DNA of 64,000 nucleotides from Myxococcota bacterium (lineage in GTDB: Bacteria; Myxococcota; JACRCW01). Made by a program: the position numbers and the translations under genes. The stretch lies in the NCBI GenBank assembly GCA_040752415.1, contig JBFMGU010000024.1, positions 1-64,000 of the forward strand, given 5' to 3'. Under the pieces are notes generated by a model, which had not been told where the DNA came from, did no database searches, and saw only the letters and a program-made list of their open reading frames with translations. Below, in pieces: positions 30,444-62,759 of this stretch (its first letter is position 1; each line of letters begins with the position of its first letter).

Positions 30444-32092
30444 GCCGGAACGCGTTTCTCGTCGACGCGCTCCGCGGTGGGCGCCACCACGCGCGGCGGC
30501 GGAGGCGCGGGGAGCCGCGCGAGGAACTGCTGCAGCTCGTCGGGCTGGGGCGTGCCCTCCTCGGTCAGGATGTCACCCAGCGCGGCCGCCATCTCATCCG
30601 CGGTCTGGAAGCGCTTGTCCGCCTCCCGCTGCAGACCCTTGCGCATGAACGCCTCCCACCTCTCCGAGAGCGAAGGCCGGAGCGTGGTGGCCGACGGAAT
30701 GGGCGCCTCCAACACCGCGTACATGGTGGCCGCGTCCTCCTCCCGGTTGAACAGGGGACGCAGACACAACAATTCCCAGATGATGATGCTGGCGGCGAAC
30801 AGGTCCACCCGCTCGTCGATGGGACGGCCCGAGATCTGCTCCGGCGCCATGTAGCTCATCTTCCCCACCACGCTCTGCGTGTTGCTCTGCTGCATGGTCT
30901 TGAGCGCCTTGGCGATGCCGAAGTCGAAGATCTTCACCTGGCCGCCGTGGCTCACCAGGATGTTCGGCGGGTTGAGGTCGCGGTGGATGACGCGCAGCAC
31001 CTGGCCCTGCTCGTCGACGGCGCCGCGGTGCGCGAACGCCAGCCCCTTGCAGATCTCCCGCGCCATCCACGCCACCAGGTGCGAGGGGATGTTCTCCCGG
31101 CTCACGCGCGCGCGCTGGATCACCTCCAGGAGCGTCATGCCGTCCACGTACTCCATGGCCAGGAAGTACGTGTTCTCGATGCGCCCGAAGTCCAGCACCT
31201 GCACGATGTTGGGATGCACCAGCCGCGCGCACAGCTCCGCCTCATTGCGGAACGCCTCGACGAGATGCGGGAACTGCATGAGGTGCGGATGCACGCGCTT
31301 GAGCGCCACCTGCCGCTTGAAGCCCCCCTCCGGGCAGTACAGCGCGCGGTACACCACGCCCATGCCACCCGCCGCCACCTGCTCCCCGATGCGGTACTTG
31401 CCGAACAACTCGTGGCTGCGCACCTCACTGGAGGCCTGGCCCACCGCCCGACGGATGGCCATGCCCACCAACGTCCCCACGCCCCCGGCCAGCAAGAGCA
31501 CCACCGAGCGCATCAGGATCATGTCCGTGCGGTAGGCGGGATGCTCCAGGAGCGCGGCGGGCATCTGCGGCCGGATCACCGCCAGGTACACCAGCGCGTA
31601 CTGCACCGCCGCCACCGCCCCGACGAGAAGCGGCATCCAACGCTTGAGCCGCAACACCGCCACGCAGCAGAACACCACGTAGAACTGCAGCGGCACCGGC
31701 GAGGCCAGCGCGTACTCCGGGCCCTGCGTGCGCGTGTCAATGAGGACGAGCGCGGTGGGGATGGTGATCTCCGCGAGCGGATTGAGCCACTGGAAGACCC
31801 GCGGCCCCACGCCGTAGCCCAGGCACAACCGCACCGCGGCGAACCAGCCCAGCAGCACCAGCGCAAAGGCCATCAGCGGCAGGCCCAGCGCGCGCGAGAC
31901 GAAGAGCGCGGTGTAGACCGAGAGGATCACGCCCGCGCCGGCCAGGATGATGCCCGACAACGCCACCACGCGTTCCAGGCGGATGATTTCCTCGTCCAGG
32001 GCGTCGCCCAGGGCGGCTTGATGGGTGTGGGCGGTCTTGGCCACGCGGGGCTCCGTCGGAGGGGCGCGTGAGGCAGGCGCGGCGGAACTCAT
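30440..32092 (-). CDS. Ser/Thr kinase with N-terminal multi-TM sensor domain
   Basis: About 5-6 TM helices, then FGKYRI..AGGMGVVY..VALKR..HRDLNPPNIL..DFGIAK..YMAPE. Confidence 0.92.
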   Translation of the reverse strand: MSSAAPASRAPPTEPRVAKTAHTHQAALGDALDEEIIRLERVVALSGIILAGAGVILSVYTALFVSRALGLPLMAFALVLLGWFAAVRLCLGYGVGPRVFQWLNPLAEITIPTALVLIDTRTQGPEYALASPVPLQFYVVFCCVAVLRLKRWMPLLVGAVAAVQYALVYLAVIRPQMPAALLEHPAYRTDMILMRSVVLLLAGGVGTLVGMAIRRAVGQASSEVRSHELFGKYRIGEQVAAGGMGVVYRALYCPEGGFKRQVALKRVHPHLMQFPHLVEAFRNEAELCARLVHPNIVQVLDFGRIENTYFLAMEYVDGMTLLEVIQRARVSRENIPSHLVAWMAREICKGLAFAHRGAVDEQGQVLRVIHRDLNPPNILVSHGGQVKIFDFGIAKALKTMQQSNTQSVVGKMSYMAPEQISGRPIDERVDLFAASIIIWELLCLRPLFNREEDAATMYAVLEAPIPSATTLRPSLSERWEAFMRKGLQREADKRFQTADEMAAALGDILTEEGTPQPDELQQFLARLPAPPPPRVVAPTAERVDEKRVPA

Positions 32093-60844: not shown

Positions 60845-61249
60845 ATGGGACAGGACGCCACGTCCGTGCTGGTGGTGGAGGATGACCGTGACCTGCGGGA
60901 GATCCTCACCGAGGTCCTGGAGAACGAGGGTTGTCGCGTCACCGCCGTGGCCAACGGCGCCGAGGCCCTCGCGCTGCTGCGCAACGGTTCACGGCCCGAC
61001 CTGATCCTGGTGGACCTGTGGATGCCGGTGCTGGACGGCCTGCAGTTCCGACGGAAACAGCGCGGCCTGCGCGGCGCGGCGGAGATCCCCACGGTGCTCT
61101 TGAGCGCGGATGGCGACGGGGTGCGCGCGGTGCGCGAGCTGTTCAACGAAGCCCTGGTCAAGCCGCTGGAGCTCAGCGCGGTGCTGGCCTTGGTGCAGCG
61201 CCACCTCACCCGGTCGCGCCGGCGTCCGGTGGTCACGGGTGGGAGCTGA
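60845..61249 (+). CDS. Single-domain response regulator
   Basis: VLVVEDD, PDLILVDLWMP, LLSA, LVKPL. Confidence 0.88.
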   Translation: MGQDATSVLVVEDDRDLREILTEVLENEGCRVTAVANGAEALALLRNGSRPDLILVDLWMPVLDGLQFRRKQRGLRGAAEIPTVLLSADGDGVRAVRELFNEALVKPLELSAVLALVQRHLTRSRRRPVVTGGS

Positions 61250-61288
61250 TCTTCGTCGTCACCGTGAGCGTGCATCCGCACCCGGAGT

Positions 61289-61297
61289 TGCTAGAAT
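61289..61297 (+). promoter_or_regulatory. Extended -10 promoter for the intergenic RNA
   Basis: TG-C-TAGAAT. Confidence 0.6.
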
Positions 61298-61443
61298 GGC
61301 GCTCCATCAGGGCCGGCCACACACCGCTGCCCGAGTCGGGGAATCAGCCCCGGCGACGTTCGGACGTGGGCCTCTCGGCGGCCACACGTCTGCGCGGTGA
61401 GGAAGGGGCTCCTCGTGCCCGCGCCGAGAAAGGAGGTGATCCA

Positions 61444-61482
61444 GTGTCCAACCCTATGGCCAGTGAGGTGGCGGCGTCCTAG
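61444..61482 (+). CDS. Putative 12-aa small peptide MSNPMASEVAAS
   Basis: GTG start directly after a maximal Shine-Dalgarno; TAG stop. Confidence 0.4.
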   Translation: MSNPMASEVAAS

Positions 61483-61600
61483 CGCCAGCCAGGAAGGTTC
61501 CGTCGGGGTCTGAACGCTGACGGCACCACGCCTCCGGAAGGATCACCTCCATTCGGAGCGTACGAGAACCTGGTGGAGCAGGATGGCCCTGCTGCCACCG

Positions 61601-61670
61601 ACCCCGGAAGCCGCGGGTTGCCACCCGCCCGCCGTACCTCGGCGGCACCGGCTTCCGGGGTTTTTTATTT
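61601..61670 (+). terminator. Intrinsic terminator with branched loop
   Basis: ACCCCGGAAGCCG pairs with CGGCTTCCGGGGT, then a TTTTTATTT tail; two small hairpins inside the loop. Confidence 0.8.
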
Positions 61671-61781
61671 CCGCCCGCTCCACGTCCCGTCGTGACCGCG
61701 CCGCACGCCCACGCTGGCGACTCCGCCGGGGGACACCGACGCCACGGTTTGCTAGAACGGCCGTTCACGGAGACCGAGCAC

Positions 61782-62759
61782 ATGGCCAAGACCCTGCTGG
61801 AGCAGCTGAGCGAGATGACGGTGGTGGTGGCAGACACCGGGGACTTCAACTCCATCCAGAAGTTCAAGCCGCGCGACGCCACCACGAACCCCTCCCTCAT
61901 CACCGCCGCGGCGCAGATGCCGGAGTACGCGGATGTCGTCGCGGGGACGTTGCGCTGGGCGGCGGGGCAGGGCGGAGACAGGAAGGCGCAGATTGCCGCC
62001 GCGGTGGACCGGCTCAGCGTGGAGTTCGGTCTGCGCATCCTGAAGATCGTCCCCGGGCGGGTCTCCACCGAGGTGGACGCGCGGCTCAGCTATGACACCG
62101 CGGCTTCCATTGCCAAGGCGCGCCACCTCATCAGCATGTACGAGGCCGCGGGCGCCAGCCGGGACCGCATCCTCATCAAGCTGGCCACGACGTGGGAAGG
62201 CGTGAAGGCCGCCGAGGTGCTGGAGAAGGACGGCATCCACTGCAACATGACGCTCTTGTTTGGCCTGCACCAGGCGGTGGCGTGCGCCGAGGCCAATGCG
62301 CAGCTCATCAGCCCCTTCGTGGGTCGCATCCTGGACTGGTACAAGAAGAACACCGGCAAGGAGAGCTACGCGCCACACGAGGATCCGGGCGTGCTCTCGG
62401 TGACGCGCATCTACAACTACTACAAGCACTTTGGTCACCGGACCGAGGTGATGGGCGCGTCCTTCCGCAACCTGGGCGAGATCACCGAGCTGGCCGGCTG
62501 CGACCTGCTCACCATTGCGCCCAACCTGCTGGCCGAGCTGCAAGGCCAGACCGGCGAGCTGCCGCGCAAGCTGGACCCCAAGGTGGCGGCGTCGCAGAAG
62601 GTGGAGCGCATCAAGATGGATGAGGCCACCTTCCGCGCCATGCACCAGCAGGACCGCATGGCGAGTGAGAAGCTGGAGGAGGGCATTTTGAACTTCTCCA
62701 AGGCGCTCGAGCAGCTGGAGAAGCTCCTGGGCGAGAAGCTGGCCACCATCGCCGCCTGA
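61782..62759 (+). CDS. tal: Transaldolase
   Basis: [64 protein letters not shown]. Confidence 0.97.

Follow-up and report, generated by a model that had tools for sequence, protein, structure and literature searches.

The small messenger RNAs (mRNAs) of the rre type are the closest described systems to the locus treated here. According to their description (Hahn et al., RNA Biol 2016/17, PMC5711450), rreB of Bradyrhizobiaceae is a 165-nucleotide (nt) mRNA encoding 14 residues, in which a 17-nt tract, which also takes in the GTG start codon's first base, pairs with the 3' end of the 16S ribosomal RNA (rRNA), and rreR of Rhodobacterales has 18 codons; a perfect complement of the 16S 3' terminus that finishes on the G of GTG is the hallmark stated for both. 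The rreB RNA was found mainly in the ribosome fraction and on 30S subunits, as was a mutant in which the start codon had been turned into a stop. The RNA is weakly translated, and putting a stop in place of the start codon lengthens its half-life from 10 to 37 min. Additionally, overproduction of the RNA had no effect on growth, ribosomes far outnumber it, and the RreB and RreR peptides are conserved within their clades and unstructured when synthesized. The same report places the analogs in Alphaproteobacteria only and leaves their purpose unexplained (PMC5711450). A literature search, covering sources other than subscription journals, found no paper that extends rre genes beyond Alphaproteobacteria. 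Two Rfam families without assigned function also bear on the locus. One is Ms_IGR-5 (RF02471), a small RNA (sRNA) of Actinobacteria found in Mycobacterium smegmatis, and the other is CC2171 (RF01867), an sRNA of Caulobacter. The latter was validated by Northern blotting in Methylorubrum, as stated in a preprint (bioRxiv 10.1101/2022.01.24.477521). The present analysis concerns a 64,000-nt stretch of a Myxococcota bacterium (assembly GCA_040752415.1, contig JBFMGU010000024.1, positions 1 to 64,000 of the forward strand), here called the window, which appears to carry a free-standing gene for a structured RNA of about 363 nt (about 61304-61666) that is probably an rre-type mRNA docking on the ribosome.

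At the centre of this gene lies the 18-nt tract AGAAAGGAGGTGATCCAG (61427-61444, plus strand, as are the other parts of the gene), whose final G is the first base of a GTG start codon. In agreement with the original prediction, which had been made from the sequence without database searches, the tract pairs at 18 of 18 positions with the 16S 3' tail of two relatives, one of the same class (G002) and one of the same phylum (G007), both ending in ...GCGGCTGGATCACCTCCTTTCT; the complement, AGAAAGGAGGUGAUCCAG in its RNA form, ends at the very last base of that tail. Ordinary Shine-Dalgarno (SD) sites involve 4-9 paired bases. The 18-mer occurs once in the 64-kb window, where at the window's composition (69% G+C) 4e-7 copies would be expected by chance, and 8e-5 in an 11-Mb genome. 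A shorter 13-mer of the tract, GGAGGTGATCCAG, has three further copies in the genome, all of them within long reading frames (codons L/T/V-E-V-I-Q), and the RNA gene is therefore the sole copy found in the assembly. One of the three, at window positions 31115-31127 on the minus strand, stands in a Ser/Thr-kinase-like frame (..LLEVIQRARV..HRDLNPPNILV..) and is a coding coincidence rather than a second RNA gene. The tract opens a micro open reading frame (ORF) at ideal spacing (GGAGG, 7 nt, GTG), which runs over 12 codons (MSNPMASEVAAS) from 61444 to a TAG stop at 61480-61482. Within it stands a second motif, GUGAGGUG (61463-61470), which contains the SD-like GAGGUG (61465-61470).

The locus is a member of a widely scattered family. 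A BLAST search against 40 relatives returned three homologs (4 of 41 genomes with the window's own), and of 401 phylum genomes sampled, 9 contain the exact 15-mer GGAGGTGATCCAGTG (in the sample's largest family, 1 of 172), the reversed control giving no match. This census is an undercount, because one genome (G027) has a one-mismatch SD and a TTG start, and metagenome pieces show more variants. In G002 and G003, both of the window genome's class, two GGAGGTGATCCAGTG matches each were seen on different contigs, one of the G002 sites (L004) having been inspected, and some relatives may thus carry two copies of the RNA gene. A pattern scan of the sequence collection, requiring SD and start followed by GTGAGGTG within 15-45 nt, gave 117 loci in at least six phyla by record titles, one of which (L087) was dropped for lying inside a coding region. 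They are found in Myxococcota, Myxococcales, Bradymonadales, 'Deltaproteobacteria', Candidatus Binatia, NC10/Methylomirabilota, Acidobacteriota, Alphaproteobacteria (Rhodobacterales, Rhizomicrobium, Dongiaceae) and Burkholderiales, together with a few singly labelled metagenome-assembled genomes (MAGs) that may be binning errors. The ORFs of L053 (a MAG labelled Verrucomicrobiia), L083 (Nitrosopumilus), L115 (Patescibacteria) and L024 (Rickettsiales) are identical or nearly identical to alphaproteobacterial, Binatia/Myxococcota-type or NC10 members; mis-binned contigs are the more likely explanation than true occurrence, horizontal transfer being possible. Across 104 distinct homologous loci, in which the search pattern sets a minimum of 13 nt, complements of 18, 17 and 16 nt are present in 46, 23 and 16 loci, respectively. 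The same ORF-end motif also follows variant docking sites, such as GGGAGGTGATTCGGTG and GGAGGTGGTCCAGTG, in relatives' metagenome and metatranscriptome contigs (loose ends at 61448-61449). Since such variants occur, the family extends beyond what exact-pattern searches reveal, and not all of its members have full complementarity.

Among 97 distinct loci, GTGAGGTG is in frame with the GTG start (..E-V..) in 92, with ORF lengths of 12-19 codons, and the stop codon ends exactly 12 nt past GUGAGGUG in 82; the stop is TAG in 79 loci, TGA in 12 and TAA in 6. This retention of the frame and of the stop distance indicates that ribosomes read to a defined end point. In the other five loci (Burkholderiales, Rhizomicrobium) the sequence of the second motif is kept in another reading frame, which suggests that it is constrained at the RNA level. 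Additionally, protein-type selection on codon positions was sought in 37 distinct homolog ORFs of 14 codons and none was found: the entropies of codons 2-8 at positions 1, 2 and 3 are 1.18, 1.32 and 1.10, so third positions are no freer than first and second ones. A C-terminal pattern, [CG]-E-V-[VIA]-x-[ST], is present in most clades, and the N-terminal residues vary freely; the peptide nearest to that of the window is MSNPTSREVAAT in G027, behind the TTG start and one-mismatch SD mentioned above and ending in a TGA stop. Since third positions are not freer and the second motif can stand out of frame, the constraint seems to be on the RNA and on the site where the ribosome stops. What selection appears to preserve is the site of docking, how long the frame is and where it ends, and the fold, and not the sequence of the peptide.

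The fold itself is well supported. The minimum free energy (MFE) structure of 61304-61668 has -200.6 kcal/mol (z -4.9), which none of 100 shuffled sequences equalled, and it contains all of the hairpins listed in the original prediction. A feature common to the family is a helix between GGUGNNN at the end of the ORF and NNNCACC just 5' of the terminator, which is 97.8% paired over 40 homologs and shows compensatory changes in three of its seven pairs. The window version joins GGUGGCGGCG (61467-61476) to UGCUGCCACC (61590-61599) over 10 base pairs (bp), two of them G-U. Directly downstream stands a three-way-junction intrinsic terminator (61601-61666) with an outer stem (61601-61612/61650-61660, compensatory changes in 8 of 11 pairs of the 40-homolog alignment), two inner hairpins (61613-61628 and 61629-61645) and a U-tract at 61661-61666. 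The predicted terminator with its U-tract is thus present, ending at 61666 and branched instead of being a simple hairpin. Over the whole 39-pair structure, 82.9% of cells are paired in the 40 homologs versus 74.6% in shuffles, and the covariation score is 0.285 versus 0.144 in shuffles and 0.066-0.104 when partners are slid; 0 of 500 shuffles reached the observed values, although these statistics are inflated by the relatedness of the sequences. A naive search for the longest helix between ORF end and downstream RNA gave no more than shuffles (8.7 versus 7.8 bp) and an anchored search a modest excess (3.4-3.8 versus 2.7 of 5 pairs), both being superseded by the alignment-based counts.

A covariance model of the 3' domain, built from 32 Binatia and NC10 sequences with no Myxococcota among them and covering a region outside the search pattern, matches the window at 61588-61668 with 46.9 bits and an E-value of 2e-7, the next match in the window having 0.33. 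It also matches 9 of the 10 Myxococcota-type loci searched (E 7e-6 to 0.008; none in L088) and gives no match at E up to 1 in six alphaproteobacterial/rreR loci or two Acidobacteriota loci. The window RNA therefore falls within the family by a 3' domain that is recognized by a Myxococcota-free model and by a long-range helix that it can form, though not as its MFE state.

The long forms, which are those of Myxococcota and Binatia type, have in addition a structured 5' domain of about 120-130 nt (61304-61426 in the window), whereas the short forms of NC10, Alphaproteobacteria and Acidobacteriota begin about 10 nt 5' of the SD. In an alignment of 35 long-form homologs, compensatory changes were found in 20 of 30 predicted pairs of this domain. 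Its hairpins are 61335-61341/61348-61354 (GUCGGGG/CCCCGGC), which on direct reading covaries in L002, L004, L058 and L074, and 61361-61372/61380-61391, and it contains a conserved CGGCGG motif and CGCCG immediately 5' of the SD. Transcription would start at about 61304, behind the extended -10 element TGCTAGAAT (61289-61297; hexamer TAGAAT at 61292-61297), and homologs have TAGNNT-type boxes at the same distance, about 135-140 nt 5' of the SD. The proposed promoter holds as to its extended -10 and lacks a good -35. A consensus scanner found no -35/-10 pair over 61100-61900 and a simple one found no terminator there, because such scanners are blind to an extended -10 without a -35 and to terminators with branched loops.

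In its free state, the RNA is predicted to hide its docking site. The perfect 11-nt anti-SD GGATCACCTCC (in RNA, GGAUCACCUCC) at 61540-61550 pairs with 61432-61442 at a predicted probability of about 1.0, as had been proposed, and the pairing is prolonged by 61421-61428/61552-61559; the predicted cost of forcing 61427-61460 open is about 16 kcal/mol. The anti-SD lies in a middle module (61494-61585) that also contains the hairpin 61500-61506/61517-61523 and is specific to the lineage: in a nearly identical relative, known from a 283-nt soil-metatranscriptome contig, both flanks match closely and 91 other letters replace the 92-nt module. A further element of the module, GGUGGAGCAGG at 61572-61582, competes with the ORF end for the 3' strand at 61588-61599, and both family-wide contacts thus appear to have local decoys in the window lineage. 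The duplex between SD and middle region has -22.2 kcal/mol (z -6.8) in the window versus a family mean of -12.2. Across the family, pairing of the SD 13-mer with the middle is scarcely enriched (-12.2 versus -10.6 in shuffles and -11.9 with the reversed probe; z below -2 in 23 of 108), and the perfect anti-SD is therefore no family trait. Of the conservation that the original prediction sought in homologs, the tract complementary to 16S recurs, and the anti-SD is an outlier of one lineage.

However, masking of the 3' half of the SD and of the start codon is predicted to recur throughout the family by other means. In thermodynamic predictions for 106 folded homologs, the mean pairing probability is 0.71 for the SD core versus 0.37 for the first five bases. 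In long forms, GGUGAUCCAGUG is predicted to pair, start codon included, with a conserved downstream C[GA]CUGGGUCACC, and in NC10 forms UCCAGUG with CACUGGA within the ORF. The C[GA]CUGGGUCACC element doubles as one arm of a covarying hairpin, which suggests two mutually exclusive states. A masked SD of this kind fits the seed-and-melt idea put forward for rreB (PMC5711450).

The comparison with described systems shows where the RNA belongs and what is shared. The window RNA and the rre genes are alike in a 16-18-nt perfect 16S complement whose last base is the G of GTG, in a micro-ORF of 12-18 codons (12 in the window, 14 in rreB, 18 in rreR) within a free-standing gene without fixed neighbours, and in an SD whose 3' part is predicted to be paired and whose 5' part would serve as seed. 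The scan's Rhodobacterales loci are of the rreR type, with 18 codons (e.g. MSRKMLERGVGTACEVRL), and share with the window an in-frame GUGAGGUG (...CEV..) and a TAG stop, the second motif being part of the search pattern. In contrast, the window RNA is about 363 nt long versus the 165 nt of rreB, which was compared by its published description, and has the extra covarying 5' domain. It also differs from rre genes in its three-way-junction terminator of Ms_IGR-5 type with the long-range helix (3'-domain model 0 of 6 in alphaproteobacterial loci), in its phylum, Myxococcota, and in its lineage-specific perfect anti-SD module.

Its best Rfam match under relaxed thresholds is Ms_IGR-5, with 22.9 bits against a gathering score of 45 (E 0.005) over the full model length (61422-61668). 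The alignment takes in the SD region, GUGAGGUGGC, UAGC and the long terminator, and the model has neither 5' domain nor middle module. For Ms_IGR-5, two NC10 loci score above the threshold, with 67.7 and 57.8 bits, and one from Binatia comes just short of it, with 41.3; by this order of scores, the window RNA marks the outer end of a series leading into Ms_IGR-5. CC2171 reaches 20 bits in the window against a threshold of 75. Its consensus start GAAAGGAGGUGAUCCAGUGUC is identical to window positions 61428-61448 (21 bases), and beyond the SD and start region, which alone aligns, body and terminator differ. Four alphaproteobacterial loci of the scan lie above the CC2171 threshold (81-97 bits) and the rreR-type loci below it (35-42). 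By sequence and structure, then, the window RNA appears to be a sub-threshold relative of Ms_IGR-5, sharing its body with the Ms_IGR-5-like branch and, with the rre genes, the docking site, the start codon and, for rreR, the second motif. None of the Rfam families attains its gathering score within the window. The word 'undescribed' has to be given up, since RNAs of this kind had been published as rre small mRNAs (PMC5711450) and CC2171 and Ms_IGR-5 cover relatives. The homologs and the covariation that were to be looked for were both found.

The reading that we favour, at a probability of roughly 75%, is that of an rre-type docking mRNA, which would be bound by the 30S subunit through the full 16S tail, initiate slowly at GUG, have its clamp helix (the long-range helix) melted by a short read that ends at a fixed stop, and be turned over in a ribosome-dependent manner. 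As long as the RNA is free, its SD would be masked internally over the 3' half, by the perfect anti-SD of the middle module in the window and by C[GA]CUGGGUCACC 3' of the ORF or CACUGGA within it in relatives, where the mask would also cover the start codon; part of the A-rich 5' end of the tract would stay unpaired as a possible seed. Pairing of the tract with the entire single-stranded 16S tail would then dock the RNA on the 30S subunit. As the tract runs into the GUG, the docked ribosome would find itself on the 12-codon frame, where initiation would be slow and translation probably weak. The translating ribosome would pass over the 5' strand of the helix that ties the end of the ORF to the base of the terminator and halt at a stop codon fixed in its distance from the SD-like GAGGUG. 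Translation would in this way remodel the RNA and probably set its lifetime. Since experiments demonstrated 30S docking for rreB, its analog (PMC5711450), such docking is plausible for the window RNA too, and the behaviour of the RNA in the cell is what we infer from such analogy. As to its cellular role, we would guess that the state and abundance of the RNA track free 30S subunits or initiation capacity.

Several points weigh against this reading. Binding to 30S, weak translation and ribosome-dependent decay are all taken over from rreB, which has 165 nt and no 5' domain. What ties the RNA to the published rre genes is the SD, the start codon and, for rreR, the second motif, and this likeness could have arisen by convergence, the 16S tail being identical everywhere. 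The SD and the second motif were fixed by the search pattern and are conserved by construction among the loci, and relatedness inflates the shuffle statistics of the alignment. The window scores below the gathering score of both Ms_IGR-5 and CC2171. In its MFE fold the conserved long-range helix is absent, a local hairpin taking its place, and the unpaired bases of the tract are reduced to AAA (61429-61431). The figure of 18 of 18 refers to the 16S of relatives, the host's own 16S end being unassembled: its assembly (520 contigs, 96.8% complete, about 11 Mb) contains no 16S gene, and the docking reading presupposes a host 16S 3' end of CUGGAUCACCUCCUUUCU. Finally, the 283-nt contig of the nearly identical relative, which comes from an RNA library, has a depth of 42 versus 2 for the other piece of its run and ends at the U-tract (61666), which is a weak sign of a discrete RNA, yet it belongs to a relative and not to the host and is perhaps contaminating DNA. 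Four sequencing runs hold small shares (0.04-0.12) of the stretch, mostly as pieces of relatives' conserved ORF-end segments.

Among the alternatives, the one that survives best, unlikely as it is, is a binder that acts as RNA alone on idle 30S subunits, holding their 16S tails either as a sponge, to cap them against 3' exonucleases, or as a storage partner; its frame would be a by-product of the start codon needed for stable docking, and translation would have no role. A duplex of 18 nt that spans the whole free tail would suit it, as would a peptide sequence without sign of selection and the finding that the rreB RNA is mainly ribosomal and 30S-bound even with its start codon turned into a stop (PMC5711450). 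Against it stand the frame, kept in 92 of 97 loci despite length changes, and the stop, at a fixed distance in 82, which speak for ribosomes that read as far as a defined end point. A strongly masked SD in the free RNA, as predicted, would be odd for a sponge. Moreover, overproduction of rreB is reported to have left growth unchanged, and ribosomes far outnumber the RNA (PMC5711450), which also speaks against the earlier suggestion that titration of 30S subunits is the main job.

Still less probable is a micro-protein gene in which the 12-residue peptide is the functional product and the leader merely tunes its synthesis. The conserved frame and the C-terminal pattern found in most clades speak for it, as does the conservation of RreB and RreR within clades (PMC5711450). 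The codon positions do not: third positions are not more variable than first and second ones, the N-terminal residues vary freely, and the conserved C-terminal codons overlap the second motif and the long-range helix, the motif itself standing out of frame in 5 of 97 loci. When made synthetically, RreB and RreR were unstructured (PMC5711450).

The neighbourhood of the gene bears on another alternative, in which the RNA is the 5' part of the transcript of the transaldolase gene tal and its terminator an attenuator that is conditionally read through. The tal gene lies on the same strand, its ATG (61782) 115 nt beyond the end of the U-tract, and the 12-mer TTGCTAGAAYGG has just two copies in the 11-Mb assembly, one over the -10 of the RNA (61288-61299) and one before tal (61749-61760, 22 nt 5' of its start). 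The two are on the same strand and 461 nt apart, at a window expectation of 0.14, and might reflect the duplication of a promoter, a site for a common regulator or an insertion of the RNA gene between tal and its promoter. On the other side, tal has its own -10-like element, TGCTAGAAC (61750-61758), and the terminator is strong and a conserved part of the family. When all loci were searched by tblastn for the tal and response-regulator genes of the window, neither was found in the available flanks of the homologs, where downstream genes are clade-specific or convergent. A Pfam search on the longest downstream frame of 103 loci gave matches in 17 and no family common across clades; they include a convergent alpha/beta hydrolase, DUF420, arfB (RF-1 domain; three Rhodobacterales loci), DUF188 (four alphaproteobacterial loci) and NUDIX (three Acidobacteriota loci). 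Since neighbouring genes differ between clades, a role as tal leader is very improbable, and the gene appears to be self-contained, as had been supposed.

Two neighbourhoods in particular clades were observed besides. In five Rhodobacterales loci (L020, L031, L069, L071, L102), the rreR-type RNA stands directly 5' of arfB, a ribosome rescue factor with the GGQ motif, on the same strand, an adjacency seen in no other clade. In two Burkholderiales loci (L011, L073), a cspA thermoregulator (RF01766, 92-93 bits) on the minus strand at 625-947 is convergent with and adjoins the docking RNA, and L073 also has a weak sX6 match.

The remaining readings hardly deserve weight and are refuted as far as sequence allows: a type I toxin-like mRNA, which, like other SD-sequestering leaders, would resemble the window RNA in having its ribosome-binding site masked by a distant complementary tract, would encode a small hydrophobic, membrane-active toxin and have an antisense RNA partner, whereas the window peptide has 12 non-hydrophobic residues, no antisense partner was seen (no search aimed at one was made) and the SD is the full 16S tail complement; chance meets an expectation of 4e-7 per window; a 16S-derived fragment would not lose identity to the 16S complement after CCAG, where the window goes on with TGTC and relatives' 16S complement would with CCGC; and more than 100 structured homologs speak against these readings. 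Of the earlier idea of a fold-back-inhibited mRNA for a micro-peptide, the mRNA part comes close to the truth, and the toxin-like part fails on the non-hydrophobic peptide and on the lack of protein selection. The sequence features on which that idea was built (tract, anti-SD, -10, T-tract and TGCTAGAAC) all lie where they had been placed.

Although RNAs of this kind are already published as rre small mRNAs (PMC5711450), several things are new here: a long form equipped with a 5' domain, a clamp helix that covaries, together with a stop at a fixed distance, a link to Ms_IGR-5, a module for self-masking and the occurrence in Myxococcota. It is conceivable, though doubtful, that rre mini-mRNAs, CC2171 and Ms_IGR-5 are branches of one old multi-phylum superfamily of translation-coupled RNA switches, each offering the 16S tail two places to dock. 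At the first, the 18-nt site, 30S would be captured at the GUG. The second would be GAGGUG, which with the stop in the A site lies 6 nt from the P-site codon; by pairing with the tail again, it would keep the terminating ribosome at the point where the helix that clamps ORF and terminator is melted. If this were true, the RNA would report the capacity for free 30S or for termination (RF1, UAG stop), or would guard the 16S tail of idle subunits. The covarying 5' domain of the long forms may then sense a ligand or protein, and the self-masking module would make the switch of the window lineage very stiff (predicted opening about 16 kcal/mol).

For the biology of the family, the idea of rre genes extends from Alphaproteobacteria to genomes of the Myxococcota type, and two Rfam families without assigned function, CC2171 and Ms_IGR-5, fall in the same picture. 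Cultured carriers, by record titles, are Lujinxingia vulgaris TMQ2 (locus L116), with the long or a related form, and Aliishimia ponticola and Thetidibacter halocola, with the rreR type. That the full tail is paired, in the same register with GUG across at least six phyla, suggests that small RNA and 30S subunit interact in a conserved way which so far lacks an explanation.

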